DNA of 64,000 bases. It comes from an uncultured delta proteobacterium (GTDB lineage Bacteria > Desulfobacterota > Syntrophorhabdia > Syntrophorhabdales > WCHB1-27). Made by a program: the position numbers and the translations under genes. The stretch is from assembly GCA_963717985.1 (NCBI GenBank), contig CAVQYC010000001.1:456712-520711 (forward strand), given 5' to 3'. Shown one piece after another: positions 5,221 through 37,500 of the stretch (the stretch's first letter is position 1; each line of letters opens with the position of its first letter). The notes beneath the pieces were generated by a model. It was not told the origin of the DNA. It did no database searches and saw nothing but the letters and a program-made list of their open reading frames with translations.

Positions 5221-5667
5221 GTGAAGATAGTGAGTACCAACAGGAAAGCCTATCACAACTTCTCGATAGAAGAGAAGTACGAGGTGGGCGTCGCTCTTTT
5301 GGGGACCGAGGTGAAGGCGCTCAGGGAGGGGAAGGCGAACCTTAACGACAGCTTCGCCAAAGTGAAAAATGATGAGCTTTTCCTGGTGAATGCGCACATA
5401 AGTCCATATTCATGCGGGAATATTTGTAACCATGAGCCGAAGCGTGACAGAAAGCTCCTTATGCACCGCTTCGAGCTGAAACGGCTCTACGGGAAGGTGA
5501 AGGAACGGGGTTACACGCTCATTCCGCTTAGCATGTACTTTAATGACAGGAACAAAGTAAAGCTGGAAATAGGCCTGGCAAAAGGAAAGACTTCCGTTGA
5601 TAAACGTCATGACATCAAGGCCAAGGACGAGAAGCGAATCAATGAGCGCGAAGGACGGTTAAGATAG
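5221..5667 (+). CDS. smpB: SsrA-binding protein
   Basis: NRKAYHNF, LLGTEVKALR, RKLLMHR, GYTLIPL, GLAKGK; directly upstream of tmRNA. Confidence 0.98.
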   Translation: MKIVSTNRKAYHNFSIEEKYEVGVALLGTEVKALREGKANLNDSFAKVKNDELFLVNAHISPYSCGNICNHEPKRDRKLLMHRFELKRLYGKVKERGYTLIPLSMYFNDRNKVKLEIGLAKGKTSVDKRHDIKAKDEKRINEREGRLR

Positions 5668-5672
5668 ATAAT

Positions 5673-6022
5673 GGGGGCGAATGGTCTCGACAGGGAAAGA
5701 AGGGTCAAGGAGGCGTGCCGGGGTTCTATCTGCCCGCAATCAGGTAGAAACTAAACACAAACGCAGAAACAGACTACGCACTGGCCGCGTAAGGCGGCCA
5801 CATCCGCTGGACTTTCCTCCCGCTTCAAGTTCAAACGGGTGTAATGCAAGTGGGATAGCCTCATCCGATACCTGTGGGGAAAGGCGAAGCTTAACAGGTT
5901 GGGATGAAAGGAAACCGGTCAGTGGGTGTCCTCGATTCCGAGACTTAATACACTGACTACGCATGTAGGCTCCTTAGGTTCTTGTTCTCTGGACGCGGGT
6001 TCGATTCCCGCCGCCTCCACCA
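5673..6022 (+). ncRNA. ssrA: tmRNA; predicted tag (A)AETDYALAA at 5763-5792
   Basis: 5' GGGGGCGAATGGTCTCGAC, 3' GGACGCGGGTTCGATTCCCGCCGCCTCCACCA; internal frame gca gaa aca gac tac gca ctg gcc gcg taa; follows smpB. Confidence 0.96.
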
Positions 6023-6200: not shown

Positions 6201-7430
6201 ATGCCTAAGCGGGTTATCCAGCTATCCGATGTTCAGGTAAGGAATGCCAAGCCCCGGAAGAAAGACTACAAGCTATCCGACGGGCGCGGTCTCTACCTTC
6301 TCGTATCAGTGAAGGGCGGCAAATACTGGCATTTCCAATACCTGATTCACGAGAAGCGCAAGAGAATCAGCTTCGGCCCCTACCCTGAGATATCCCTTGC
6401 CGAAGCGCGAGAGAAGCGTGAGGAAGCCCGAAAGCAGATTTTGCACGGGATAGACCCGGCAGGCGTCCGCAAGGCTATGAAGCAGGCGGAGACTGTAGAG
6501 CCTGAGACATTCGAGGTGATAGCCCGTGAATGGCACGCGAAATTCACCCCTACGTGGTCGGCGACCCATGCGACAACCATGATAGCCCGGATGGAACGTG
6601 ATCTCTTCCCGTGGATAGGAGCACGCCCTATCAACGAGGTCAAGGCCCCTGAGCTTTTAACGGTCCTTCGCCGGGTGGAGAGCCGGGGCGCCCTGGAAAC
6701 CGCACACCGGATCAGAACCATTGCAGGGCAGGTGCTCCGGTACGCCGTCGCTACAGGCCGATGTGAACGTGATTGCTCCGGCGACCTGAGAGGGGCATTG
6801 CCTCAACCGGGAGAGCATCACCATGCCGCTATCACGGACCCGAAAGAGGTTGCACCCCTTCTGAGGGCGATAGACGGCTACCAGGGCGGGTTTGTGGTCA
6901 AATGCGCCTTACGCCTTGCCCCCATGTTCTTCGTGCGCCCTGGAGAGCTACGACAGGCGGAATGGGAGGAGATCGATCTCGATGAGCGAGTCTGGAACAT
7001 ACCGGCGCACAAGATGAAAATGAAGCAGCCCCATATCGTGCCTCTGTGCGCTCAGGCCGTGACGATACTGACGGAACTGAAACAGCTTACCGGCGCGAGC
7101 AGGTACGTCTTCCCTTCAGGGCGGTCCTTCGCACGGCCGATGAGCAACAATACCGTGAATGCGGCACTACGGCGCATGGGCTATGACAAGGAGACCATGA
7201 CCGGCCACGGCTTCAGAGCGATGGCAAGGACCATCCTTGACGAGGTCTTGCAGGTGAGGCCGGACTACATAGAGCATCAGCTTGCCCATGCCGTGAGAGA
7301 CCCGAACGGCAGAGCCTACAATCGGACGGCACATCTTGAAGGACGCCGCGAAATGATGCAGACCTGGGCGGACTACCTGGACGGGCTGAAAAAAGGCGCA
7401 CAGGTATTGCCATTGCACAGGAAGGGTTAA
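6201..7430 (+). CDS. P4-type tyrosine integrase, apparently intact
   Basis: Arm-binding N-terminus YKLSDGRGLYLLV..GGKYW; catalytic residues RPGE, KMK, HGFR, LAH, AYNR. Confidence 0.95.
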   Translation: MPKRVIQLSDVQVRNAKPRKKDYKLSDGRGLYLLVSVKGGKYWHFQYLIHEKRKRISFGPYPEISLAEAREKREEARKQILHGIDPAGVRKAMKQAETVEPETFEVIAREWHAKFTPTWSATHATTMIARMERDLFPWIGARPINEVKAPELLTVLRRVESRGALETAHRIRTIAGQVLRYAVATGRCERDCSGDLRGALPQPGEHHHAAITDPKEVAPLLRAIDGYQGGFVVKCALRLAPMFFVRPGELRQAEWEEIDLDERVWNIPAHKMKMKQPHIVPLCAQAVTILTELKQLTGASRYVFPSGRSFARPMSNNTVNAALRRMGYDKETMTGHGFRAMARTILDEVLQVRPDYIEHQLAHAVRDPNGRAYNRTAHLEGRREMMQTWADYLDGLKKGAQVLPLHRKG

Positions 7431-7586: not shown

Positions 7587-7817
7587 CTATTTGCAGAGCT
7601 TCAGAAATTCCTCGACAGTCATGCCTGCCTTTCCGATCTGGTCCCGCAGTAAGCCTTGCTTTACGGTGTCCCCTTTGTGAAAAGGAATGGAAAGGATGTT
7701 CGGGTTGCCTTCCTTCGTGAGCTTTACGTGGCTGCCCTTCTGCCCCCTTACCTTCCATCCCGCCCGCTCGAATGCCCTTATCACCCCTTCGGGTTTCAGG
7801 TTGTGAATCCCGCTCAT
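7587..7817 (-). CDS. hicA: HicA-family mRNA interferase toxin
   Basis: 76 aa, GW..RGQKGSHVKL..IPFH..VKQGLLR; ATGA overlap with upstream antitoxin. Confidence 0.9.
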   Translation of the reverse strand: MSGIHNLKPEGVIRAFERAGWKVRGQKGSHVKLTKEGNPNILSIPFHKGDTVKQGLLRDQIGKAGMTVEEFLKLCK

Positions 7818-8455
7818 GAGGCCCGTTTGGACTTTTCGTCTTGCCGGTCTTCCTCTATAATTTCAAGGTGTCCGCTAATCGCGTCCTTCATCATACCAAG
7901 CGTTTCTTCTATCGTGTCTCCCTGAGACGCGCATCCGGGCAGATCGGGACATTCTCCCCAGTAGCCCCCGTCTTCCATATCCGCGCGTAAAATCACTCGA
8001 TACTTCTTTCCCTTGACCGTCACGGAATATTTCCTTTCCTTCTCCAGGTCAATTACTTCTCCCCGGAGCTTTTCGATCAGGTCTCCTAAAGCGATAGAGA
8101 ACACCAGTTGCCCTTGTTTCAAGGTATCCATGATCTGCTTGTCGTCCCCGGTGATGACGAATATCGTTTTGCCGTCCGTGAGAAAGCGAAGCTCCGCAAG
8201 GGGTTTCTCTACTTCCTTGATGTGTTTTTTCAGATAGGTCACGGCTTTCCTGATCTTCTGAAGGGTAAGCCCGCTGTCCAGCAAGGTTTTCGCTACCTTG
8301 ATCTGAACCAGGTCGCTGAAGGAATAGAGCCTTACCGATCCCTTCCCTGCTGCCTCGCTTATCGAGGGTTTTATGAAATTGCTCGAATCCCAGTAATCGA
8401 GCCTTCTTTGCGTCAGATCGGTGATCTTGGACACCGCTTTACTATTGAAATTCAT
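7814..8455 (-). CDS. hicB: MerR-type HTH fused to HicB antitoxin domain (213 aa)
   Basis: N-term SKAVSKITDLTQRRLDYWD..RLYSFSDL..GLTLQKIR; C-term YRVIL..EDGGYWGECPDLPGCASQGDTIEET; SD GGAGGG before ATG 8455. Confidence 0.85.
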   Translation of the reverse strand: MNFNSKAVSKITDLTQRRLDYWDSSNFIKPSISEAAGKGSVRLYSFSDLVQIKVAKTLLDSGLTLQKIRKAVTYLKKHIKEVEKPLAELRFLTDGKTIFVITGDDKQIMDTLKQGQLVFSIALGDLIEKLRGEVIDLEKERKYSVTVKGKKYRVILRADMEDGGYWGECPDLPGCASQGDTIEETLGMMKDAISGHLEIIEEDRQDEKSKRAS

Positions 8456-8488
8456 GTTCCTTCCCTCCATGAGTACATTACTGTATTT

Positions 8489-8515
8489 ATTATACATATG
8501 TTTTGCTTTTGTCAA
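8489..8515 (-). promoter_or_regulatory. Putative sigma70 promoter of the MerR-hicB/hicA operon
   Basis: Perfect TTGACA (8515-8510) and TATAAT (8494-8489) but only a 15 bp spacer. Confidence 0.5.
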
Positions 8516-8862
8516 TAGATTTCCGGTGCCTTACCGTCCCCTGCCTTGCTATTCTCCGCACCCATTCCAAACAGTTCCCTGAATAGACTATCCTGGAACC
8601 CTGCAATACTACGGTCGCGGTTCTTAATAAGCCACCTGAAACATAGGGTAATAAACTTCGATCTGGTTAGCCCGACTTCCCGCAAGATCGGTTCGACTCT
8701 TTCCCATTCCTCGTCAGTGACATATACGTTCCGTCGATAAGGATCGGTACGGCGAGGCTTTGACTTTTTAGCGTGAGAGGCCATCAGCACCCGAGGTGTG
8801 TTCTCAGCCTGACTCACAGACGCCCTCTCTTGCGCCCTTCTCAATTTTCTTTGCTTGCCCAT
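8512..8862 (-). CDS. Ribbon-helix-helix (CopG-like) DNA-binding protein
   Basis: RRNVYVTDEEWERVEPILREVGLTRSKFITL fits the RHH pattern; start uncertain. Confidence 0.55.
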   Translation of the reverse strand: MGKQRKLRRAQERASVSQAENTPRVLMASHAKKSKPRRTDPYRRNVYVTDEEWERVEPILREVGLTRSKFITLCFRWLIKNRDRSIAGFQDSLFRELFGMGAENSKAGDGKAPEIY

Positions 8863-9907: not shown

Positions 9908-11125
9908 CTATGGAGGCTTGCCCACAATACCGGCACGCACCGGCCAGAGGCAGAATCTATTATCATCGTTTTTTTTGTTACGAGCACTACTAAGGTTAGC
10001 GATATGGTTCATGCCCAGGCTGCGGCCGAGCCCCCAACTGCCGTCTTTCATATTGACGACCCATGCGAGGTCGTGCGACCTGTAGGGAGAAGACGACCAG
10101 TAGAAATCGGGCTGAACATTTATGAATGGATGGCCCTGCGACAGGGCGCACTGATGCATAGAATAATCGATCAGGCTTCTAAGCTCCTTAACGTTCGGCA
10201 GCCGCCAGTCGTTGTGCCCGTAGGTTCCTGAGCCGGAATTAATAGAGGTTACGTATTTTAGCGCTCCTACCCACGTCTTATAACTACCCCATAATAAACT
10301 CTGGTCGTTTTCCGTGACGTTTCCATCTTTTGTCCATATGAGACCGGTCAGGTTATCCGTTACAGTGCCATCGTCATTATCGATAAATCGTGGATCGGGC
10401 CAGGGAACTCCTGCTTGTATATGGCCGTCGTCACCTGAATGGCGGCTTTGCGTCTGACCCGTGGCCCAAATAGCCGCGTTACGAAATGCCCCGGATTGTC
10501 CATCACGAACAGGCCAAACTTTTGAGTCGCACGCCCTAGGATCAGGTTTCTTGATCGCCTTCCATCTGGCTTCTGCGAGGCCGCCCATGGTAAAGTTAAT
10601 GCGCCACGCGAAGGAGCTATTGATTGCATGCGTTGTAGAGGACCAATAGCCCGTAAAAGGCAACGATCCAACATTTCTAAATATCTGCGGCACACTGCGC
10701 AATGGGCTTATGAGATCCGGATTTCTATTGGACGGCCCGAAGATAACGAGGCTTTCCAACTCGTTAATATTTGGCAGCCGCCAGTCGTTATGACCAAGGT
10801 GATTCACGGCATTTAAACAAGTTACATAATTAAAAGCATTCTCCCAACCCATCACTCCACCCGCGCACGACCCGGCCGTCAACACTTTATGCGCGGACGA
10901 CCACCAGTGTCGCTTTTGCATCGGCTCGTATGACCCGACCATAGGCGTACCGGCATTTTTTGTCCATATGAGACCGGTCAGGTTATCCGTTACAGTGCCA
11001 TCGCCATTATCGATAAATCGTGGATCGGGCCAGGGAACTCCTGCTTGTATATGGCCGTCGTCCCCTTCCTTATTGCCAAGGAATCCTAAAGTCCATCCCG
11101 TCCGCGGCAGGTTTACAGTTCCCAT
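9908..11125 (-). CDS. Tandem DUF1566 (Lcl C-terminal) domain protein
   Basis: Two copies of RFIDN.DGTVTDNLTGLIWTK ... HNDWRLPN..EL.SL ... YWSS. Confidence 0.88.
   Translation of the reverse strand: MGTVNLPRTGWTLGFLGNKEGDDGHIQAGVPWPDPRFIDNGDGTVTDNLTGLIWTKNAGTPMVGSYEPMQKRHWWSSAHKVLTAGSCAGGVMGWENAFNYVTCLNAVNHLGHNDWRLPNINELESLVIFGPSNRNPDLISPLRSVPQIFRNVGSLPFTGYWSSTTHAINSSFAWRINFTMGGLAEARWKAIKKPDPRACDSKVWPVRDGQSGAFRNAAIWATGQTQSRHSGDDGHIQAGVPWPDPRFIDNDDGTVTDNLTGLIWTKDGNVTENDQSLLWGSYKTWVGALKYVTSINSGSGTYGHNDWRLPNVKELRSLIDYSMHQCALSQGHPFINVQPDFYWSSSPYRSHDLAWVVNMKDGSWGLGRSLGMNHIANLSSARNKKNDDNRFCLWPVRAGIVGKPP
10328..11062. repeat. 105 bp intragenic direct repeat (10328-10432 and 10958-11062)
   Basis: Compared by eye: one mismatch (tcgtcatt vs tcgccatt). 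Confidence 0.9.
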
Positions 11126-12056: not shown

Positions 12057-13679
12057 ATGGAAAATACTCTCTACTACGGCGATAATCTGGACATTCTGCG
12101 CCGCTACCTGAAAGACGAATCGGTTGACCTCGTTTACCTGGACCCGCCGTTCAATTCCAATGCGAACTATAATGTGCTTTTTGCAGAAAAGGACGGACAT
12201 AAGGCCGCGAGTCAGATTCGGGCTTTTTCGGATACCTGGACATGGACACAGGAAAGCGAATCCGCCTATGCAGAGGTTGTGACGGCGGGCGGGCGGGTGG
12301 CCGATTGTTTACGGGCTTTCAGGACGTTCTTGGGCGAATGCGACATGTTAGCCTATCTCGTTATGATGGCTCCGCGCCTTGTGGAACTGCGGCGGACATT
12401 GAAGCCCACGGGCAGCATATACCTGCACTGCGATCCGACAGCGAGCCACTACCTGAAATTGCTTATGGATGCTGTTTTCGGTCCTCAAAACTTCAGAAAT
12501 GAAATCGTCTGGAAGCGAACCAGCGCCCATAGCAGCGCCAAAAGATACGGTCCTGTCCACGACACGCTGCTCTTATTTTCTAAGACAGATGGGTACACCT
12601 GGAACCAATCCTTTCAAGCCTACGACGAATACTACCTTGACCAATTCTACACGCACATTGACGACAAGGGTAGACGATGGACAAGGTCCGATCTCACCGG
12701 GGCCGGTGTCCGGCATGGTGAAACCGGAAAGCCGTGGCGCGGCATTGACGTAACTGCGAAGGGCCGTCACTGGATGGTGCCTACTGCCGAGTTAGACAAG
12801 CTCGATGCTCAGGGTAAGATTCACTGGCCCGAAAGGGAGGGTGGTATGCCAAGGCTCAAGCGCTATGTTGATGAGCAACCGGGCGTTCCGCTGCAAGACG
12901 TGTGGACGGACATTCCGCCGATGCATAATCTATCCCGTGAACGCCTCGGCTACCCCACGCAGAAACCCGAAGACTTGTTGGAACGAATGATTCAGGCGAG
13001 CAGCAACGAAGGGGACACAATCATGGACCCCTTCTGCGGCTGCGGGACCGCTATCGCCGGTGCCCAAAAACTCGGCCGCCGATGGATAGGGATAGATATA
13101 ACGCACCTTGCAATAACGCTTATCAAGCACCGCCTTAAGGATACCTTCGGCGAAGCTGCCGCATACAAGGTGATCGGGGAACCGGTAAGCGTGCCTGACG
13201 CCGAGGCGCTTGCGGCTTCAGACCCGTATCAATTTCAATGGTGGACCTTGGGCCTTGTGGGGGCGCGGCCCGTCGAACAAAAGAAGGGAGCGGACAGGGG
13301 TATTGACGGGCGGATCGTCTTTCAGGGCGATAAGGCCGGAGTATTTGAAAGCGTAATTCTATCAGTGAAGGCGGGTAAGACCGGCCCGTCGCACGTCCGA
13401 GACTTAAAAGGCGTCTTGGAGCGGGAAAAAGCAGCCATAGGCGCTTTGATTACAATGCAAGAGCCGACTGCTGAAATGAAGACCGAGGCTGTTATGGCGG
13501 GATTCTATCAGTCCGAGACGTGGGGGCGGAAATATCCGCGAATGCAACTCTTGACAGTGGCCGAATTATTGGCCGGGAAGAAGATCGAAATGCCCCCGAT
13601 CCGGCAAGTGGGTGCTACGTTCAAGAAAGCGCCCAAAGCGACGGGGACACAGGGCGAACAGGTTAAACTGCCAATGTGA
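12057..13679 (+). CDS. N6/N4 DNA methyltransferase (beta class) fused to a C-terminal Mrr-like endonuclease domain
   Basis: DPPF, YPTQKP, DPFCGCGT; C-term GADRGIDG..LSVKAG..HVRDLKGVLEREKAAIGALIT. Confidence 0.88.
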   Translation: MENTLYYGDNLDILRRYLKDESVDLVYLDPPFNSNANYNVLFAEKDGHKAASQIRAFSDTWTWTQESESAYAEVVTAGGRVADCLRAFRTFLGECDMLAYLVMMAPRLVELRRTLKPTGSIYLHCDPTASHYLKLLMDAVFGPQNFRNEIVWKRTSAHSSAKRYGPVHDTLLLFSKTDGYTWNQSFQAYDEYYLDQFYTHIDDKGRRWTRSDLTGAGVRHGETGKPWRGIDVTAKGRHWMVPTAELDKLDAQGKIHWPEREGGMPRLKRYVDEQPGVPLQDVWTDIPPMHNLSRERLGYPTQKPEDLLERMIQASSNEGDTIMDPFCGCGTAIAGAQKLGRRWIGIDITHLAITLIKHRLKDTFGEAAAYKVIGEPVSVPDAEALAASDPYQFQWWTLGLVGARPVEQKKGADRGIDGRIVFQGDKAGVFESVILSVKAGKTGPSHVRDLKGVLEREKAAIGALITMQEPTAEMKTEAVMAGFYQSETWGRKYPRMQLLTVAELLAGKKIEMPPIRQVGATFKKAPKATGTQGEQVKLPM

Positions 13680-13845: not shown

Positions 13846-14970
13846 TTAACTGCATATCTCCTTCACTCTGTTTAGAGCTTCGTGCGGACACGAAAAGACC
13901 TCACACCCATATTTCTTGTCAAAAGCAACATGACTTCGGGTAACCAAGTCCCTCAGACTGTGCTCAGTGAAGAAGAAATCAAAATAGGGCAAGGCAGTTT
14001 GGGCATGTCTGAAATCATGCAAATCGTTTCTCTTGAATTTCCTTTTGGTATCCCATCGCACTAGAGCATGTAACGCAGAGCCGATTACGAGTGTCGGAAA
14101 ATAGGTCTGTAGCTTATTCTTGCGGAACAGATTATAAACTGCATTTGCAATCTGTTTCCCCGCCTTACTTGATTTCACTTCGCTCGGTGTCGGTTCACAC
14201 CCTTGCTGCCCCTTAAACAGATAAACCATGGTATCTTCAAAAGTCGGTATGCACAGATCGAGTACCCCTGCAAGCTCTGATAGGCAAAGCTGTTTGAAAG
14301 AATTATTTTCATGTGAATGTCTGATCTTTCCCTCGTTCAAAATATCCGACAAGTCGTTCAGCCGAGGCATTTTAGAAATTGCCTCTTTCCCCATTATTTC
14401 TATCATTTGGGATAATGAGATCGTCCACATTTGATCGAAGAAAGCCTTCTGAAGCACCAGCTCTTCTTGAGGAAAGAATGGCGTAGATGTCGGGTGGACA
14501 GCGCCGAGCACATAGGCCAACTTCGTCCAGACTAATACGTCTGGCGAATGCACTGAATCTTCTCCTCCAATGGTTCTTCGGATAAAGTAGAGCGTTTCGA
14601 AGCCAATTCGTTCTTGCTCCGACAATATTGATATACCTCTTGATAGGATGTCAATGAGATTGCTTGTTTCAGAAAGCGTCTTTGTGTCTGACTGGTTCAA
14701 TACCTCTGCAAAAATATCTTCGCTTATAGGGCACACCATTCTCCCGTCTTCGACTCCGTATCGCAGCACCGCCAGGAGTTCTGTAATGTCCCCGTCTCTT
14801 TGTCTTCCCATTGCAGCGTCCCGCAGAAGCAACCAATACTTCGTATCAAGATATATTTTCTTGCACTTCGCCATTTCGCGGCCGAGTGCTATCCTAACCT
14901 CCCTGGTATACGTTTCTAAGGTCTTTTCAGGCTCCGATCTGTGTTTTTCAAAAGTATCGATCAGTTTCAT
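13846..14970 (-). CDS. Hypothetical protein with PIN-like acidic motifs
   Basis: IYLDTKYW, CPISEDIFAEV, NDLHDFRHAQTALPYFDFFFTE; fold is inference. Confidence 0.55.
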   Translation of the reverse strand: MKLIDTFEKHRSEPEKTLETYTREVRIALGREMAKCKKIYLDTKYWLLLRDAAMGRQRDGDITELLAVLRYGVEDGRMVCPISEDIFAEVLNQSDTKTLSETSNLIDILSRGISILSEQERIGFETLYFIRRTIGGEDSVHSPDVLVWTKLAYVLGAVHPTSTPFFPQEELVLQKAFFDQMWTISLSQMIEIMGKEAISKMPRLNDLSDILNEGKIRHSHENNSFKQLCLSELAGVLDLCIPTFEDTMVYLFKGQQGCEPTPSEVKSSKAGKQIANAVYNLFRKNKLQTYFPTLVIGSALHALVRWDTKRKFKRNDLHDFRHAQTALPYFDFFFTEHSLRDLVTRSHVAFDKKYGCEVFSCPHEALNRVKEICS

Positions 14971-15304
14971 GTCTTCTACAATTAACGGACGCGGTAACGG
15001 GGCCATTGACGGTGGACAACTTCCGTTCCGGCCGCATCAATTCGAGAGCAGCTTTTTATCTGCCCCTCAATGATTACCACTTGTTTTCCTTTTCTTCAAG
15101 AAGAATCTCGGAATCCTCCATTCCGTTCCAGTGAGTAATAACCGGATGAACCATTAATCCTTTTTGCGGTTGATTGGGCGTAAGCGCGGGGACATATCTT
15201 GCAGGTTTGTTGGGGCTATGATTGCGATTTTGGGGGCTGTTGTGGGGGCGTGCCAGATTTTGCGAGGTTTGATAATCCCATGATAACGCTATGTTAGCAG
15301 CTCA

Positions 15305-15330: not shown

Positions 15331-15764
15331 TTTTATTGATATTATTAGCATTATTTCCTCCTTGTTCGTTCCAGGGCCGTTCCAGGCCTTGTGAACTTTA
15401 TGATTCTCTTTTCAAGCAGTGCTTTCCTGGCCGATACCTCTACCTTTGCATACCTCTTCACTGATTCCCGCCGCGCGTGGTCCGTCGCTATCTGAACCTC
15501 GTCGATTGAATAGCCGTACTCATTCACAAGTTGAGAGCATGAACTGTGCTTGACCCCAGGATAAAGCGCTATCGATTCTCCTACCTTCTTGCAAGCCTCT
15601 TTCCATATCTTTGATAGCGCCTTGCCCGTGTATGGCTGTCCCGGCCTTTCGCCGTTCGGATTGACGAAGAAATACGGCGAGACGATGGACAACGATTGTT
15701 GTTTTGCCTTTTCAGTCTCGTAGTGCGGAATAAACTCGTCGACCATAGGGACGTAATGAATTTC

Positions 15765-17605
15765 TGATTCCTGAGAAGAAAGTGCCCTTTCTGAAAGGAT
15801 CAATCGTCACCATCGTTGTGTTACCACCATCGTGAAGATGAACTTCTTAGGCAAGGACACGCCAACTATTTCGGTCCAGAATACCTTCATGCTAATACAA
15901 AGAGACGATATGCAGCCTTCCAGGGTCTTTTTCAAGGCCCAAGGGGCCTTGGCCCACCTCTTTATGTTGCAGGCGATCAGTTTGCATGCAACGGCAAAGC
16001 ATACTTTTGCCAGCCGACGCACCCGAAGTCTGCCGATTCCGTGAGATCGTTTCAATTCGGAGTTTGTTGCTTCGATCCCTGCACGAATCTTGTACCGGTC
16101 TTTCCATTCAGTGGTCTGCTGGATGGCATACATCTGATCCCGCAGGCGAAGCTCGGCAGTGATCTCCAGACGAAAGTCCCCGACCGTTTCACGGGCCTGG
16201 CAGCCTTTGTTGCGGTGGTTCGGAGCTCTTACCGGGCACCTATCGAGCATCGTGCACGATCGACAGGCGTTTCCGTCAAAGATCGCATGGAGAGAACGAC
16301 GGGTGCTGTTGTTGCCGCTCAGTATGCGATGGTCTATGGGACTATTACCCATGGGACATCGGGTCACCAAACCTTCCGAGTCGAAGGAGAAAAGGTCTCT
16401 GCCCACGATATCGTCGGAGAGCCTGCTGCGGTTGACGGGCGTGACGAATTCGATACCTTGCTCTATGACCTTTGCCGCTGAAGGGACAGACGGATAACCG
16501 CCGTCGGCAAAGAGCGCTTCGGGCTTCAACCCGGCAGCCTCCAAACGTTCGATAACAGGAAGGGCCTTGCCGATGTCGGATCTGGCGGCGCCATGCACCT
16601 CATAGTCTGTGATGATTTCGGTTTTTCCGGTATTCTTGCACGTCTCCGTAACATGAAGGCTGTATCCCGGCCCTTTATGTCCGCAGGACGCATCCGGGTC
16701 GTAAGGGGATTGAAGGGTTGCTCCTTCACTCTTTTTCTTCACCTGGACCTTGGACGATTCTTGGTCTGAGGTGAATTCGCATTGTTCGGAGAAAAGGCGC
16801 TTCAACAATTGGTACGGCTCATTGCCTGTAAGTTCATTATCCTTCTCGAAGATAACAATAAGGTCATAGAGATACTGCGCCAGTTCTTCCAGCTTGATCT
16901 TCTGCTCGGCCGGACCCAATCCGAACCAACCCTCGGGTTCGCTTGAATGCCATTCCTGAATTGCCTTCGGGACTCTCGACAATTGATCTTCATTCAGACT
17001 CTTGAGAAACTGGGTGAGCGTATTCGAGAATAGAGCCAATCTGCCTCGTACACGAATGTTCGAGATTATGTGGGTAGAATCAAGCCGCTGGCTGGAAGAC
17101 GAGAGGCCAAGTTTGCTTATCGCTGAATCTCTGATATTGTCGAATACATGGCGGACCAGCTTCATCTCCGGGTCTTTGGCGGCCAATCGCCTGCGGAACT
17201 CTACAAGAGAGCGACGGGACAAATAATCTTCCTCATCGCTGACATCCAAGGCGTATCGCCACCGGGTGTCAAAGCTGAAGGTGTCGAGGGCCTCCTGGTC
17301 ACTCAAGTTGCTCCACTCCTGAAGGAGACACAAACCCAAAAGACGCGCAACGCTGAAATTAGGCCGGCCTGTTGTGCCGTACAGAATCGCATAGCGATCT
17401 TCGTTCCTGAACAGGATTGGAAATACCTCGCCTCTAAACAGGTGAGCCCATGAAGACTCAAGACGGTTCCGCAAAGAGGGGGACACCTGCGTCTCCACGC
17501 CGAGTAGTTTTTGTTGAGGTGGTGTTTTCTTATACATGACATATTCTATCATTGTATGTAATTAAATACAATAGTTATTTGTGGAGAGTTACTTCTCAGG
17601 AATCA
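15765..17605 (-). mobile_element. IS copy A, 1841 bp, IS1182/IS5-like DDE element
   Basis: 14 bp TIR TGATTCCTGAGAAG; target duplication TTTC at 15761-15764 and 17606-17609. Confidence 0.92.
15807..17552 (-). CDS. DDE transposase (DUF772-like N-terminus), 581 aa
   Basis: GRPN..LSDQEA..WRYAL..SLVEFRRRL, LDSTHI, ADGGY, YKIRAGIEATNSELKR. Confidence 0.92.
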   Translation of the reverse strand: MIEYVMYKKTPPQQKLLGVETQVSPSLRNRLESSWAHLFRGEVFPILFRNEDRYAILYGTTGRPNFSVARLLGLCLLQEWSNLSDQEALDTFSFDTRWRYALDVSDEEDYLSRRSLVEFRRRLAAKDPEMKLVRHVFDNIRDSAISKLGLSSSSQRLDSTHIISNIRVRGRLALFSNTLTQFLKSLNEDQLSRVPKAIQEWHSSEPEGWFGLGPAEQKIKLEELAQYLYDLIVIFEKDNELTGNEPYQLLKRLFSEQCEFTSDQESSKVQVKKKSEGATLQSPYDPDASCGHKGPGYSLHVTETCKNTGKTEIITDYEVHGAARSDIGKALPVIERLEAAGLKPEALFADGGYPSVPSAAKVIEQGIEFVTPVNRSRLSDDIVGRDLFSFDSEGLVTRCPMGNSPIDHRILSGNNSTRRSLHAIFDGNACRSCTMLDRCPVRAPNHRNKGCQARETVGDFRLEITAELRLRDQMYAIQQTTEWKDRYKIRAGIEATNSELKRSHGIGRLRVRRLAKVCFAVACKLIACNIKRWAKAPWALKKTLEGCISSLCISMKVFWTEIVGVSLPKKFIFTMVVTQRW

Positions 17606-18422
17606 TTTCTCCTGTCTTGGTCCTATCAATCAACTGTCTGTCAGAAAATGAGCGGTGAATGGTGAATATTTCTCCGTCAAAATCGATCTTATGCAGGGAT
17701 GCCGCCTCACAAGGCCGCCGAAGATGGAATTTCAGCCACCAGATAATAGGTTGGTGTTCTGCGGGAATAGCCTCGATAACGGGCCGCTGCCTGTCCTCTG
17801 GCAGCCATACGATCGGCGTATCCGTGATATTGTATGCCTTCCTCTTAGGGAACGGCGGGACCACGGGAATTCGCTCCGATCTCCACGCAAAGTCGAGACA
17901 GGCATGAAGGCAATACATGACGTTAAGCTTTCCCTTTCCTTCCCGGTTGATGCTGTTCAGAATTCGCATCAGCGTGTCGTAGCGGACCTCATGAAGACGA
18001 ATACGCTCATTCTCGAAGAACGGTATCAGATAGTTCTCGATGCTGCCCCGATAATCCTTGTAAGTGGCGGGGGCCAGGGTCGGCTTCACGGTTTCAAGCC
18101 ACTCCTTGAGATAGTCCGACACTTTGCACGGAAGCTCCGTGTACTCCTCGATCCGGAAAACGCCTTTTTCAACGTCCGCTTGCATACAGGACAGAAGCTT
18201 TTCGGCCATCCTGCGATCATAGAGCAATTCGCCTTTGTAGTGATATACCTTGTACGTCTTCTTATGCGCGGGATGGTACCAGGCCACATAATACCTCTTC
18301 ACGTGCTCCGCATAGCCTATGGTCCCTTTCATACAAAAACCCCCAGGAATGAATTTACCTGGAGAAATTATATTGACCTGAAAGGGAGCGGTCAACGCTT
18401 TTGCCTTTTATCCTTTGTCTCT

Positions 18423-20540: not shown

Positions 20541-22381
20541 TGATTCCTGAGAAGTAACTCCCCACAAATAACTATTGTATTTAATTACATACAATGATAG
20601 AATATGTCATGTATAAGAAAACACCACCTCAACAAAAACTACTCGGCGTGGAGACGCAGGTGTCCCCCTCTTTGCGGAACCGTCTTGAGTCTTCATGGGC
20701 TCACCTGTTTAGAGGCGAGGTATTTCCAATCCTGTTCAGGAACGAAGATCGCTATGCGATTCTGTACGGCACAACAGGCCGGCCTAATTTCAGCGTTGCG
20801 CGTCTTTTGGGTTTGTGTCTCCTTCAGGAGTGGAGCAACTTGAGTGACCAGGAGGCCCTCGACACCTTCAGCTTTGACACCCGGTGGCGATACGCCTTGG
20901 ATGTCAGCGATGAGGAAGATTATTTGTCCCGTCGCTCTCTTGTAGAGTTCCGCAGGCGATTGGCCGCCAAAGACCCGGAGATGAAGCTGGTCCGCCATGT
21001 ATTCGACAATATCAGAGATTCAGCGATAAGCAAACTTGGCCTCTCGTCTTCCAGCCAGCGGCTTGATTCTACCCACATAATCTCGAACATTCGTGTACGA
21101 GGCAGATTGGCTCTATTCTCGAATACGCTCACCCAGTTTCTCAAGAGTCTGAATGAAGATCAATTGTCGAGAGTCCCGAAGGCAATTCAGGAATGGCATT
21201 CAAGCGAACCCGAGGGTTGGTTCGGATTGGGTCCGGCCGAGCAGAAGATCAAGCTGGAAGAACTGGCGCAGTATCTCTATGACCTTATTGTTATCTTCGA
21301 GAAGGATAATGAACTTACAGGCAATGAGCCGTACCAATTGTTGAAGCGCCTTTTCTCCGAACAATGCGAATTCACCTCAGACCAAGAATCGTCCAAGGTC
21401 CAGGTGAAGAAAAAGAGTGAAGGAGCAACCCTTCAATCCCCTTACGACCCGGATGCGTCCTGCGGACATAAAGGGCCGGGATACAGCCTTCATGTTACGG
21501 AGACGTGCAAGAATACCGGAAAAACCGAAATCATCACAGACTATGAGGTGCATGGCGCCGCCAGATCCGACATCGGCAAGGCCCTTCCTGTTATCGAACG
21601 TTTGGAGGCTGCCGGGTTGAAGCCCGAAGCGCTCTTTGCCGACGGCGGTTATCCGTCTGTCCCTTCAGCGGCAAAGGTCATAGAGCAAGGTATCGAATTC
21701 GTCACGCCCGTCAACCGCAGCAGGCTCTCCGACGATATCGTGGGCAGAGACCTTTTCTCCTTCGACTCGGAAGGTTTGGTGACCCGATGTCCCATGGGTA
21801 ATAGTCCCATAGACCATCGCATACTGAGCGGCAACAACAGCACCCGTCGTTCTCTCCATGCGATCTTTGACGGAAACGCCTGTCGATCGTGCACGATGCT
21901 CGATAGGTGCCCGGTAAGAGCTCCGAACCACCGCAACAAAGGCTGCCAGGCCCGTGAAACGGTCGGGGACTTTCGTCTGGAGATCACTGCCGAGCTTCGC
22001 CTGCGGGATCAGATGTATGCCATCCAGCAGACCACTGAATGGAAGGACCGGTACAAGATTCGTGCAGGGATCGAAGCAACGAACTCCGAACTGAAACGAG
22101 CGCACGGAATCGGCAGACTTCGGGTGCGCCGGCTGGCAAAAGTATGCTTTGCCGTGGCATGCAAGCTGATCGCCTGCAACATAAAGAGGTGGGCCAAGGC
22201 CCCTTGGGCCTTGAAAAAGACCCTGGAAGGCTGCATATCGTCTCTTTGTATTAGCATGAAGGTATTCTGGACCGAAATAGTTGGCGTGTCCTTGCCTAAG
22301 AAGTTCATCTTCACGATGGTGGTAACACAACGATGGTGACGATTGATCCTTTCAGAAAGGGCACTTTCTTCTCAGGAATCA
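20541..22381 (+). mobile_element. IS copy B, 1841 bp, inverted relative to copy A
   Basis: Same TIR; target duplication GACAT at 20536-20540 and 22382-22386. Confidence 0.92.
20594..22339 (+). CDS. DDE transposase, 581 aa, one residue different from copy A
   Basis: KRAHG vs KRSHG; otherwise identical translation. Confidence 0.92.
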   Translation: MIEYVMYKKTPPQQKLLGVETQVSPSLRNRLESSWAHLFRGEVFPILFRNEDRYAILYGTTGRPNFSVARLLGLCLLQEWSNLSDQEALDTFSFDTRWRYALDVSDEEDYLSRRSLVEFRRRLAAKDPEMKLVRHVFDNIRDSAISKLGLSSSSQRLDSTHIISNIRVRGRLALFSNTLTQFLKSLNEDQLSRVPKAIQEWHSSEPEGWFGLGPAEQKIKLEELAQYLYDLIVIFEKDNELTGNEPYQLLKRLFSEQCEFTSDQESSKVQVKKKSEGATLQSPYDPDASCGHKGPGYSLHVTETCKNTGKTEIITDYEVHGAARSDIGKALPVIERLEAAGLKPEALFADGGYPSVPSAAKVIEQGIEFVTPVNRSRLSDDIVGRDLFSFDSEGLVTRCPMGNSPIDHRILSGNNSTRRSLHAIFDGNACRSCTMLDRCPVRAPNHRNKGCQARETVGDFRLEITAELRLRDQMYAIQQTTEWKDRYKIRAGIEATNSELKRAHGIGRLRVRRLAKVCFAVACKLIACNIKRWAKAPWALKKTLEGCISSLCISMKVFWTEIVGVSLPKKFIFTMVVTQRW

Positions 22382-22605
22382 GACATTCAAAAACGTCCCG
22401 CCCCTGATATCCCTTCCCCTCGCACTCCCCTTCAAGATAGTGATAACAGCCCCCTTCGCACCCGAATTCTTCCGCTTGTACATCGCCCAGGCACTCGTCT
22501 AAGAAGGCCCCGAAGTGTTCTATGACCCTGCTTTTGCCCTGGACCCACCATTCCGGCAATTGCTGTGCCGCTCGTACAGCCTTCTTCCGCTCAAGCCTTT
22601 CTTTC

Positions 22606-23661
22606 TTACGTTTCTTCATAATGGCCCCCATAATCGGTATTTTCATAGGACTTCTCGCCGTGCCCTTCTTCAAATTCCTCGACGCTCATTCTCTTTTCGC
22701 TTCCGAACGGTAAGAATCTCTTATCCCATTCCGTCCCGGTTCCCATGATATCCGTACCCACACACTCCCAATTCCCTTTGACGAACGGTTCAGTCACCGG
22801 AATTTCTTTCTCGCCGATCTCCACGGCCTCACACTGCTTTTCTTCCTTCTTCCTCTTGCCGTAAGCCACCCGGTAGAGAGGCACCCCGAAGAAATAGGCA
22901 TAGGCATAGAGAAGATGGACTTTATTGCCATCGACGCAGGTAACGGCCTTCTTCAGATAGCTTGAAAGGTAGCCCGCAACTTGGCCCCCCGTTCTCACTG
23001 TGACCTTGATCCCTTGTGGTTTTGACCATCCCCACAGCCTTACTATGTCGTCTATATCGGCGATCCAACCGCCCTTGAAATAGAAGTGGATATGAGGAAG
23101 GCCCGATTCCCTGTAAGGCTCTATGGCGAAGCCTCTATAACTCCACTCCCATCCTTTTCGCTTGTAGAAGGACCGTAGGCGCTTCAGGAAGGCGCTTATG
23201 TCCGTTCCGATGCGGAACATGAGGAATCCATAGAAGTCGCCGCCCCATCCTGATTCTTCCATGAGATCGTACATACGCCGCTGATCGTATCCTATTGCGA
23301 GCATCGTCACCTTGGTTTCATCCTTCACGCTATCGTGTATGTCCCAATACCGTTTCTTGTACCAGTCATCCCTTTTCGTGTTCCACCTGGAGCAGATCGG
23401 CATCCGCTTGTACTCCCCGCTATCCATGTTCCTGAAGACCAGCCCCACGTTGCTGTAATAATCGACGGTAGAATAGAACATCGTCGCCACATCCTGCTTG
23501 TCGAACAGGTATGAGTATTTATCCACTATTTCGGCTCTCTTCTTTTTCCCCCGTACTTCTGTTCTTATTGTGACGTGTTTATCAGACCTTGGCCGTGTCT
23601 CCACCCAGGGTTGAATATCGTTCCTTGCCCGCCAGAGTGAATAATCCCGACTTTCGCTCAT
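22606..23661 (-). CDS. HUH rolling-circle replication initiator (two-tyrosine type)
   Basis: EPYRESGLPHIHFY (HUH) and VAGYLSSYLKK (YxxxY). Confidence 0.75.
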   Translation of the reverse strand: MSESRDYSLWRARNDIQPWVETRPRSDKHVTIRTEVRGKKKRAEIVDKYSYLFDKQDVATMFYSTVDYYSNVGLVFRNMDSGEYKRMPICSRWNTKRDDWYKKRYWDIHDSVKDETKVTMLAIGYDQRRMYDLMEESGWGGDFYGFLMFRIGTDISAFLKRLRSFYKRKGWEWSYRGFAIEPYRESGLPHIHFYFKGGWIADIDDIVRLWGWSKPQGIKVTVRTGGQVAGYLSSYLKKAVTCVDGNKVHLLYAYAYFFGVPLYRVAYGKRKKEEKQCEAVEIGEKEIPVTEPFVKGNWECVGTDIMGTGTEWDKRFLPFGSEKRMSVEEFEEGHGEKSYENTDYGGHYEET

Positions 23662-24370: not shown

Positions 24371-24961
24371 TTACCCCTTAAGTCTTTTCCTGATGCCCAC
24401 AAGGCCAAGGAGGCCGGGGGCAAGAAGCAGTAGTGTCGGGGGAACGGGAACCGGGCTGTAGGTAGCAACGAACCCTACCTTTGTCGGGTCGATGTTCCCC
24501 GTGAGAACGATATTCACAAAGAAGGTGTCACCGGCGACAAGCGCGGCTCCTCCGGGAGCGAAAAACTGCACCTCCGTGGGCGAAACCGAGACCATGGTCC
24601 AGAGTGCACCGGCTGTGGTGTTGCTGAAGCGTGTCGTGAGATAGGAGCCAAACGGGTCATTCCCCGGGGTAGGAGTCAAATCGATCGCTACTCCCGCGGG
24701 CACGGTAAATTGAGTGCCGAGCACGAAGTCGAAATCCCGCGTCGCCGGGCCCGTCCAGGTCAACGTCCCCGCGAGGAGGCCCGGGATACCCCACGCTGAA
24801 GTTCCCCCAGGGCCTTGGGTATTCCAAGACCACGCGTTGCCGTACGTGTCCACTCCCGTGGCTCCAAGGCCCACGAAGCTGACATCGGCCTTTGCAGAGG
24901 CGGCGAAAACCATGATCACCATTGCCAGAACGATCGTTGTAGCCACTAACATTCTTTTCAT
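24371..24961 (-). CDS. PEP-CTERM/VPLPA-CTERM exosortase-sorted surface protein
   Basis: Signal peptide ending ASAKA; C-term VPVPPTLLLLAPGLLGLVGIRKRLKG. Confidence 0.88.
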   Translation of the reverse strand: MKRMLVATTIVLAMVIMVFAASAKADVSFVGLGATGVDTYGNAWSWNTQGPGGTSAWGIPGLLAGTLTWTGPATRDFDFVLGTQFTVPAGVAIDLTPTPGNDPFGSYLTTRFSNTTAGALWTMVSVSPTEVQFFAPGGAALVAGDTFFVNIVLTGNIDPTKVGFVATYSPVPVPPTLLLLAPGLLGLVGIRKRLKG

Positions 24962-25059
24962 AAGCTTTTCTCCTTTTGATTTTGACTAACGCCGGAACAT
25001 GAACTGCCTGTTGAGACTCCCCACCCCCTTTCGCTTTCATGCGTGAAAGCGTTTTTTTT

Positions 25060-25155
25060 GGCAGCCCGGCCGTCTGTCTGCAGTGCTCACGAGAAGCGTA
25101 TCAGAGACCCGCTGGCTTTCCGTCCCACCCTTACGAGTGGTTTGGCTTTGTCAGA
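25060..25155 (-). ncRNA. GEMM-I (cyclic di-GMP-I class) riboswitch
   Basis: Minus strand GACAAAGCCAAACCACTCGTAAGGGTGGGACGGAAAGCCAGCGGGTCTCTG..CAGACGGCCGGGCTGCC. Confidence 0.88.
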
Positions 25156-25365: not shown

Positions 25366-26634
25366 TCAGAGGATAGTGTTCATGCCATACATATAGGGCC
25401 GCAACACCTCGGGTACAGCGATGGCGCCGTCCGCAAGCTGGAAGTTTTCCATGACCGCCATCACACACCTGCCCACCGCAAGCCCCGAACCATTCAAGGT
25501 ATGTACGTATTCCGTCTTTCCGGTCCCGGTCCTGTACCTGATCCTTGCCCTTCTTGCCTGGAAGGCCTCGAAGTTACTGCACGACGAGATCTCCCTGTAG
25601 ATGTTCTGCCCGGGGAGCCATACCTCGATGTCATAGGTCTTTGCCGAGGAAAATCCGAGGTCGCCGGTGGATAGGAGAGAAACGCGGTAGTGGATGGAGA
25701 GCTTTTTCAGGACATCCTCGGCATCGAGGAGCAGACCTTCGAGCTCTGCATAAGAGTCCTGGGGCAAGCTGAATTTTACCAGCTCCACCTTGTTGAACTG
25801 GTGCTGTCTGGTGAGGCCCCTCGTGTCTTTTCCGTGGGCTCCGGCCTCTTTTCTGAAACAAGGCGTGTATGCGACATACTTGATGGGCAGGTCGTCTCCT
25901 TTCAGTATCTCGTCTCTGAAGATGTTCGTCACGGGCACTTCGGCAGTCGGTATGAGGAAGTAGTCAGGGTCGGAAAGCTTGAAAAGCTCTTCCTCAAACT
26001 TCGGAAGCTGCCCGGTGCCTGTCATGCTCTCCCTGTTCACCATGAAAGGCGGCAGCACCTCGGTATAGCCGTGCTCGCGCACATGGAGATCGAGCATGAA
26101 GTTGATGAGCGCCCTTTCCAAAAGGGCCCCGTGGGATTTGTACAGGGTGAATCTGGAGCCTGTGATCTTCGCGGCCCTCTTGAAGTCGAGTATGTCGAGT
26201 CTCTCGCCCAGGTCCCAGTGGGCGATAGGCTGGAAGTCAAAGCGAGGTTTCTCTCCCCATGTCCTGACCACTTCGTTCTGCTCCTCGCCCGCCCCAAGGG
26301 GTACGGAGTCATGAGGGATGTTCGGTATTTCAAGGCTACTGAGCTCCCATTCACTTTCCACGCCCCTAAGCTCCTGTTCCCGAGCTTCAATCTCTTTCCC
26401 GACGGCCCGGAGCTGTTCTATCTTCTCTTGCGCTTCGACGCCGCTTTTTTTCAGCCGCGCTATTTCATCGGAAGTGACGTTCCGCTGATTCTTCATCGCC
26501 TCTGCGTGTCTGATCAGCTCGCGCCGACGCTCATCTATCCCGATCAGTTTTTCAAGATCGAATACGGACCCCCTCTTCTTGAGGCTTTCCCGCACCAGTT
26601 CCGCTTTTTCTCTTATCAATTTCGGATCGAGCAT
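25366..26634 (-). CDS. serS: Serine--tRNA ligase
   Basis: [55 protein letters not shown]. Confidence 0.98.
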
Positions 26635-37264: not shown

Positions 37265-37279
37265 GAAAACTCAAGACTG

Positions 37280-37435
37280 AAAAGGCAGCGCGTCACGCGC
37301 TTGAAAAGGGAAGACGGTGCAACTCCGTCACGGGCCCGCCGCTGTGAGGGGGGACGAAGGGCGCAAAAGACCACTGGGAAACCCCGGGAAGGTGCGCTCA
37401 GTAAGGATGAACCCCGAAGTCAGAAAACCTGCCTG
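37280..37435 (+). ncRNA. Cobalamin riboswitch between acsB and acsC
   Basis: AAAAGGGAA..GGTGCAACTCC..GCCCGCCGCTGTGA..CCACTGGGAAACCCCGGGAAGG..AAGTCAGAAAACCTGCC. Confidence 0.9.
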
Positions 37436-37500
37436 GCAGTCTTACCCAAACCCCTCTCCCCGCGGTCGGGAGCGGAAGCTCACTTGATAAGGAGACTGCT

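Follow-up and report, generated by a model that had tools for sequence, protein, structure and literature searches.

Near one end of a 64,000-nucleotide stretch of DNA from an uncultured delta proteobacterium (contig CAVQYC010000001.1; the whole stretch is called the window below) lies a two-gene cassette on the minus strand, in which an antitoxin gene encoding a MerR-HicB fusion protein precedes and overlaps the gene of a HicA toxin. In all likelihood, given the sequence comparisons, a structural model and the analogy with characterised systems, the cassette is a type II HicBA toxin-antitoxin system whose three-part, CvkR-type antitoxin would repress its own promoter. The arrangement is far beyond chance, because a word-indexed protein search with the fusion returned 1,684 homologous protein clusters at an expect value (E) of 1e-3 or below, and the best 120 of these, from which the architecture was read, all share it bar one. 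They are 209-258 residues long (nearly all 210-216), 67-96% identical to the query and carry both Pfam domains, the exception being a truncated entry of 186 residues. Full-text searches of the open-access literature found no description of a MerR-HicB protein or of a MerR-type antitoxin of HicA, and this real, ancient and abundant variant of hicBA appears to be as yet undescribed.

Architecture of the toxin and the fused antitoxin

The features of the cassette are as follows.

7587..7817 (stop included), minus strand: hicA toxin gene, 76 amino acids (PF07927, E 1e-15)
7814..8455, minus strand: cvkR-like merR-hicB fusion antitoxin gene, 213 amino acids plus stop (open reading frame from ATG 8455; Pfam)
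8222..8455, minus strand: MerR-type winged helix-turn-helix, residues 1-78 (PF13411 at residues 4-72; model)
8039..8221, minus strand: CvkR-like beta-strand dimerisation domain and C-terminal helix, residues 79-139 (profile, Foldseek, model)
7817..8038, minus strand: HicB partial RNase H-like toxin-binding domain and basic tail, residues 140-213 (PF15919, phrog_497, Foldseek)
7814..7817, minus strand: ATGA stop/start overlap, predicted translational coupling (sequence; stop codon 7814-7816)
8463..8468, minus strand: Shine-Dalgarno sequence GGAGGG, 7 nucleotides 5' of ATG 8455 (sequence)

An earlier note, made from the DNA letters alone, had described a single 213-residue open reading frame with an N-terminal MerR helix-turn-helix and a C-terminal HicB domain, coupled by ATGA to hicA, and both the coordinates and the Pfam matches bear this description out. 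The true start codon of the fusion is ATG 8455, because GGAGGG lies 7 nucleotides upstream and close aligned homologues begin MNFN... or MYFN...; a purine-rich, GGAGG-like element is present in most homologous upstream regions.

Besides its Pfam match, the toxin hits phrog_353 ('toxin') and aligns with Yersinia pestis HicA3 (4p78) and with TTHA1913 (1whz). Its G28-S29-H30 motif is invariant in 52 HicA sequences of this family that are 45-96% identical, and the G28/H30 region aligned with Gly26/His28 of Y. pestis HicA3, the catalytic residues that HicB masks in solved complexes. NCBIfam holds no specific model that matches either HicA or the fusion protein.

At the N-terminus of the antitoxin the PF13411 (MerR_1) match is strong (E 7e-13, 48.9 bits against a cut-off of 21.6), and it recurs in all 38 diverse full-length members of the fusion family. 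The winged helix-turn-helix sequence matches GlnR, CvkR and MtaN. At the other end, PF15919 (HicB_lk_antitox) matches residues 161-205 (E 3e-8, 34.5 bits, cut-off 27) and is found in 24 of the same 38 members, while phrog_497 matches residues 151-206.

An AlphaFold2 model of the fusion monomer, built on an alignment of the 38 diverse full-length homologues, has a mean predicted local distance difference test score (pLDDT) of 84 and falls into three parts. The first is a winged helix-turn-helix (residues 1-78), with helices and wing strands over residues 2-78; the second consists of a short helix and four beta strands within residues 85-119 (the strands at 90-119), followed by a 16-residue helix at 123-138; the third is a HicB domain of beta-beta-beta-beta-alpha order (residues 141-212). 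In Foldseek searches of the PDB the top match of the whole model was CvkR (7xn2; E 1e-4, 137 columns), and the C-terminal domain superposed on the HicB structures 6g1c and 6u0i with a root-mean-square deviation of 0.9-1.0 Å over 51-52 columns. A profile of the fusion family agrees with the first of these matches, its positions 4-139 aligning with residues 9-152 of the 7xn2 chain at E 5.9e-18.

These comparisons change how the middle of the protein is to be read. The earlier note had seen a linker of about 70 residues between MerR and HicB; a stretch between the two does exist, but it is no mere linker, being a conserved folded domain homologous to the dimerisation domain and C-terminal helix of CvkR, with invariant residues that include P85, L86, F91, T93, G95, F99, Q116 and G124 in the homologue alignment of residues 79-139. 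By sequence profile and model, then, the antitoxin consists of an entire CvkR-like repressor and, joined to its C-terminus, a HicB domain, rather than of a MerR helix-turn-helix spaced from HicB. Experiments have shown CvkR itself (Alr3614) to be a homodimeric repressor in which a winged helix-turn-helix is followed by a dimerisation domain built from three antiparallel strands, and this by a terminal helix; neither a coiled coil nor a recognisable effector site is present, and the protein binds the palindrome AnnACATnATGTnnT (ACA-N3-TGT) (PMC9938897). The whole length of this 150-residue protein is homologous to residues 4-139 of the fusion, and the plan of winged helix-turn-helix, beta strands and terminal helix is the same.

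The likeness to canonical MerR regulators (MerR, CueR, SoxR, BmrR) is confined to the N-terminal winged helix-turn-helix. Such regulators have a coiled coil, an effector domain or site, and an operator inside a long promoter spacer, and the fusion has none of the three. The long antiparallel dimerisation helix that forms the coiled coil of canonical MerR is absent from the fusion model, and scans with Pfam and NCBIfam detected no metal- or drug-binding effector domain in the protein, where the CvkR-like helix is followed directly by HicB.

Spread of the family and the fate of hicA

An exhaustive search of representatives at 50% identity gave 5,936 matches, and at least 34 of the top 150 that we viewed are full-length fusions, 30-55% identical to ours. 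Many other representatives among these 150 are stand-alone proteins of 150-165 residues that match only residues 3-140. One member that is 37% identical to the query (P0133) retrieves a second clade of 405 matches, the named ones belonging to Myxococcota or Polyangiaceae; the best 120 of the 405 are 203-267 residues long, and many are annotated by the Joint Genome Institute (JGI) with both functions. Names in the first clade are Nitrospirota, Thermodesulfovibrionales and Syntrophorhabdus together with delta-proteobacterial metagenome-assembled genomes (MAGs). The genomes nearest to the window, in a scan with the single protein that yielded four loci, are MAGs of 'uncultured delta proteobacterium' (96-97% identity), then MAGs of Thermodesulfovibrionales and Nitrospiraceae. 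The best 120 clusters of the first search go under the source names 'MerR family transcriptional regulator' or 'RNase H-like HicB family nuclease', with Nitrospirota and Syntrophorhabdus among their taxa.

The earlier note had allowed that homologues might always be two separate genes, joined here by a recent stop loss. The homologues counted with both domains are instead single fused open reading frames in both clades, and the junction between MerR and HicB is well conserved in the homologue alignment. Sequence comparison thus indicates that the fusion is old and not a recent stop loss, because fused frames occur in two deep clades only 37% identical to each other. In the stand-alone examples checked, two from metagenomes and three from plasmids, a split version was absent: in none of them do hicB and hicA follow the CvkR-like gene.

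Stand-alone CvkR-like proteins of 150-180 residues, homologous to residues 1-140 of the fusion, are common in their own right. They include the loci L091-L093 and L105-L107, and the hosts of plasmid-borne examples include Rhodococcus, Gordonia, Mycobacterium and Corynebacterium. Some CvkR-like representatives carry other C-terminal additions, such as a 329-residue protein (P0152) with repeats resembling a TolB-like beta-propeller. Judged by these homologies, the CvkR structural subfamily is much broader than the CRISPR-associated transposon (CAST) elements of cyanobacteria.

The association with hicA was examined in a metagenome scan with an alignment of close homologues, which found 520 relatives and from which 80 loci were kept. 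An intact hicA lies directly downstream in 60 of the 80, with the identical 4-nucleotide overlap in 59 of those 60; among the remaining loci, seven are ended by contig edges and up to 13 were flagged as degraded. In the second clade, too, hicA is found downstream of the fusion. Seven degraded loci (L038, L058, L070, L080, L082, L084 and L088) were inspected by eye, and in each the antitoxin gene is intact and hicA is deleted or broken. What is left of the toxin gene begins with its initial 8-20 codons (MSSLHNLKP...) before a deletion or frameshift sets in; where the deletion is internal, it takes out the G-S-H motif. Orphan copies of the fusion without hicA also occur (L096, L101 and L102). 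Decay of the toxin gene beside an intact antitoxin gene is the expected pattern if HicA is toxic and the fusion protective, and as read from these sequences it would fit a genuine toxic partner.

In three of the seven decayed loci (L082, L084 and L088) a tRNA-like sequence follows the hicA remnant.

Promoter and predicted operator

The regulatory features upstream of the cassette were predicted as follows.

8510..8515, minus strand: predicted -35 hexamer TTGACA, from alignment on the operator; 15-nucleotide spacer to the -10
8489..8494, minus strand: predicted -10 hexamer TATAAT, in register with the TATTAT/TATAAT of the family
8474..8485, minus strand: predicted operator TACAGTAATGTA, an inverted repeat ACA-N4-TGT, 3 nucleotides after the -10 box
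8494..8501, minus strand: second perfect palindrome ACATATGT in the promoter spacer, a weak candidate for a second site

Of 66 distinct upstream regions, 58 contain the inverted repeat ACA-N4-TGT, whereas shuffling of the sequences gives 2.1. It lies 28-58 nucleotides before the start codon, and within 28-41 nucleotides in 53 of the 58. When the 58 regions are anchored on this operator, the consensus of the family is cTTGACAt-N17-TATTAT-AAt-TACAt.AATGTAtTTATAA, with TTGAC in 49 of them, and the spacer between -35 and -10 is typically 17 nucleotides, as compared with 15 in the window's own clade. The promoter of the window was assigned from these operator-aligned homologous regions; a sigma-70 scan that covered spacers of 16-18 nucleotides made no call. 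In the second clade ATGACACGCGTGTCAT, with the same ACA-N4-TGT core, stands about 14 nucleotides before the ATG.

MerR-type activators bind inside a spacer of 19-20 base pairs between the -35 and -10 hexamers and activate by distorting the DNA. In the fusion family, unlike these canonical operators, the palindrome lies downstream of the -10 box. Since it covers the expected transcription start, and since the spacer is typically of the optimal length, 17 nucleotides, the geometry points to simple autorepression and not to MerR-style activation. It is most likely, from the conserved sites and by analogy with CvkR, that the fusion represses its own promoter through the predicted operator. The promoter geometry is of the repressor type, as with CvkR, and the palindrome has CvkR's ACA/TGT half-sites at a spacing of N4 instead of N3; the preference for such half-sites appears, from the sequences compared, to be kept across the widened range of the CvkR subfamily.

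The second palindrome, ACATATGT, was considered as a conserved CvkR-like site and rejected: it occurs only in the window and its closest relatives, is mutated already in three of the relatives (L009-L011) and is probably non-functional. A longer open reading frame of 233 residues from a TTG was likewise rejected as the fusion gene, as this TTG falls within the -35 hexamer. Directly upstream of the cassette, an open reading frame of 116 residues (8512-8862, minus strand) has its stop codon inside the same hexamer; it resembles NikA-like/ribbon-helix-helix proteins only weakly (E 0.03), is matched by neither PADLOC nor PHROG, and is conserved in the window's island clade (L001, L005 and L006) but not in the wider family.

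Mechanism, genomic setting and relation to known systems

The contexts in which HicA occurs have been catalogued in 14 genetic forms by Gerdes 2024 (PMC10865869), which gives a framework in which the cassette can be placed. The commonest bicistronic form in that catalogue is hicBA with a HicB that has no DNA-binding domain. Against this background the baseline of the earlier note, with hicA first and the DNA-binding domain of HicB at the C-terminus, is out of date: antitoxin-first hicBA is common, and an N-terminal domain has precedent (PMC10865869).

The nearest parallels in layout are Classes 5 and 6, antitoxin-first hicBA with an N-terminal Phd/YefM domain (PMC10865869). They share with the cassette the closely linked or overlapping genes, an N-terminal part for DNA binding and dimerisation, and a C-terminal part for toxin binding; the module is Phd/YefM in those classes and, in the fusion, a CvkR-type MerR winged helix-turn-helix with a beta-strand dimerisation domain, together about 140 residues. 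Neither the gene order nor the N-terminal DNA-binding domain is therefore unusual in itself, because Classes 5 and 6 combine both. Class 2 has a small HicB of 63-103 residues without a DNA-binding domain (PMC10865869). Gene order, overlap and a HicA of about 76 residues are common to Class 2 and the cassette, and by eye the cassette's HicA and HicB domain resemble Class 2 sequences of that survey's Table S1; the cassette's HicB, however, has a complete repressor fused in front. Class 7, with a HicB of 216-233 residues that has two DUF1902 domains and no DNA-binding domain (PMC10865869), is similar in HicB length, but membership was rejected, since the N-terminal half of the fusion is a MerR winged helix-turn-helix and DUF1902 is found in only three of the 38 members. 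MerR is absent from the main text of that survey and its 14 contexts, and in the part of its supplement searched the string 'merr' matched once, inside a protein sequence.

Classical HicAB systems (E. coli, Y. pestis HicA3B3, B. pseudomallei; Classes 3 and 4) have in common with the cassette a HicA toxin of the double-stranded RNA-binding fold with a catalytic histidine and a partial RNase H-like HicB. Their antitoxin dimerises and autoregulates at a palindromic operator, the counterpart of which is predicted in the cassette. The order of the genes and that of the antitoxin domains are both reversed between the two, and the DNA-binding domain is Xre-type helix-turn-helix or ribbon-helix-helix in the classical systems and MerR-type in the fusion. 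There is also precedent for a type II antitoxin that binds DNA through a MerR-family helix-turn-helix, in the MerR-PIN pairs of Makarova et al. 2009, where MerR-type antitoxins are described only with PIN toxins and in truncated form, and HicA-HicB is called a strictly unique pair. Those antitoxins differ from the fusion in having no wing 2 or dimerisation helix and a small N-terminal toxin-binding domain, and they pair with PIN and not with HicA. What is new here is the type of DNA-binding domain, a CvkR-type MerR, modular shuffling and N-terminal placement being already known.

CvkR is a stand-alone cyanobacterial regulator of cas12k and tnsB in type V-K CAST elements, and has neither a HicB domain nor a partner toxin. 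Genes for cas12k and tns were absent from every locus examined, and the fusion is thus a structural relative of CvkR and not a functional CvkR.

Taken with the solved HicAB complexes, these comparisons suggest how the cassette might work. As read from the sequence, one sigma-70-type promoter serves both genes, and the ATGA overlap couples their translation. The HicB domain is predicted to bind HicA, a small toxin of the RNase type, and mask its catalytic His30, while the CvkR-like part would dimerise the antitoxin into a complex of the HicA2-HicB2 type. The paired winged helix-turn-helix domains may then bind TACA-N4-TGTA, which covers the expected start of transcription directly downstream of the -10 box, and repress the operon. 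HicA would itself be the regulator's natural 'effector', and toxin occupancy, or the ratio of toxin to antitoxin, probably tunes repression as in E. coli hicAB, since the evidence points to no partner other than HicA. The cassette as a whole would be a mobile selfish or stabilising module.

Some observations weigh against this scheme. The dimerisation region is of moderate confidence in the monomer model (pLDDT 61-78 at residues 100-140). The 15-nucleotide spacer in the window's clade is poor for sigma-70, and here the promoter assignment is less secure than elsewhere in the family. The half-sites of the predicted operator are spaced one base differently from those of CvkR (N4 as against N3).

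The cassette sits in a genomic island of about 18 kb inserted next to ssrA, of which hicBA is the first cargo, beside the integrase. In a row stand smpB (5221-5667), the transfer-messenger RNA (tmRNA) gene (5673-6022, tag AETDYALAA) and a P4-type tyrosine integrase (6201-7430). Between about 6.0 and 24.5 kb the guanine-plus-cytosine (GC) content is low (0.45-0.55, the flanks having 0.59-0.62), and the cassette lies at the edge of this stretch; no attachment-site direct repeat of the tmRNA 3' end of at least 18 nucleotides was found at the far end of the island. Another assembly contains an almost identical island, in which the integrase-hicBA junction recurs but IS21, ParB-like, AlpA and TIR genes are present. 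At other loci the neighbours of the cassette are housekeeping genes, IS21 elements, Fic and other toxin-antitoxin genes. This scattered, mobile distribution is typical of toxin-antitoxin cassettes and is neutral on a role in defence; island stabilisation as a local effect is equally plausible.

Several other genes lie in the low-GC stretch. They include an Lcl_C/DUF1566 protein with an internal 113-nucleotide repeat (9908-11125, minus strand), an N6/N4 DNA methyltransferase fused to an Mrr-like nuclease domain (12057-13679, plus strand), an adjoining open reading frame of 386 residues for which no annotation was obtained (13846-15006, minus strand), a truncated integrase (17589-18395, minus strand) and a Rep ORF2/G2P-like gene (22606-23661, minus strand). 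Two inverted insertion sequence (IS) copies (15757-17605 and 20541-22389), each of 1,849 nucleotides, 99% identical and encoding a 581-residue DDE_Tnp_1 transposase, flank about 2.9 kb in a layout like that of a composite transposon inside the island. At the apparent far edge, a c-di-GMP-I-GGC variant riboswitch (25056-25155, minus strand; RF03167, 68.8 bits, gathering threshold 59) lies between serS (25366-26634) and an open reading frame of 196 residues (24371-24961). Further on, a cobalamin riboswitch (37266-37449, plus strand; RF00174, 110 bits) stands upstream of an open reading frame of 444 residues (37501-38835).

The earlier note had proposed that the MerR module could tie release of the toxin to a signal, possibly with an anti-phage function, and we found nothing in support of such coupling. 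In its fullest form the proposal would have the MerR/CvkR-like module sense a small molecule, a redox change or a protein of a phage or mobile element, so that the operon is derepressed or HicA is freed and causes abortive infection. In its favour, defence islands often contain HicA genes, many of whose contexts have been suggested to serve defence (PMC10865869), and the authors of the CvkR study left room for an effector, possibly a protein (PMC9938897); the window's island also bears the methyltransferase-Mrr fusion, and the closely related island the TIR-domain gene. We nonetheless regard this switch as unlikely. CvkR-type proteins have neither the coiled coil nor a recognisable effector-binding site, the place after the CvkR-like C-terminal helix is filled by the HicB domain, and the operator position and typical spacer are those of plain repression. 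PADLOC gave no match, full-length copies of the fusion were absent from the phage, plasmid and viral-contig collections searched, and the neighbourhoods vary from housekeeping genes to IS elements. In another version, a protein from a phage, plasmid or transposon, or else a metabolite, would bind to the CvkR-type domain or to the terminal helix of that domain, and the antitoxin would act as a sensor that frees HicA or derepresses the operon; this seems to us quite improbable as well. If it were true, the family would be a one-protein sensor-antitoxin for abortive infection, and CvkR-type regulators would generally act through protein effectors.

It could also be argued that the fusion is chiefly a transcription factor for other genes, with a dimerising or regulatory HicB-like part, and that hicA is a passenger or co-regulator and not a toxin in need of neutralisation. 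Databases do label the protein a 'MerR family transcriptional regulator', its stand-alone CvkR-like relatives are ordinary regulators, and orphan copies without hicA exist; but the checked orphans keep hicA remnants and so derive from complete cassettes, the 4-nucleotide overlap with hicA is nearly universal, the HicA catalytic motif is kept, and the sole conserved operator found is at the fusion's own promoter. We consider this account very unlikely. That a stop loss or frameshift joined merR and hicB by an error of annotation or assembly in one genome only is scarcely credible, being refuted by the 1,684 clusters, the 34 or more full-length clusters at 50% identity, the second clade of 405 and the conserved junction.

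As a HicBA system that is probably autorepressing, the cassette adds to the known HicA contexts an abundant class that is antitoxin-first, has a MerR/CvkR-type DNA-binding domain and comes with a predicted operator open to direct test. It is a further case of antitoxins assembled by swapping DNA-binding modules. Annotation of the antitoxin as a MerR family regulator makes genome pipelines miss the toxin-antitoxin pair. The CvkR subfamily, so far described as a CAST repressor, is at the same time widened to MAGs named Nitrospirota/Thermodesulfovibrionales, Syntrophorhabdus, delta proteobacteria and Myxococcota, and, through stand-alone relatives, to actinobacterial plasmids.

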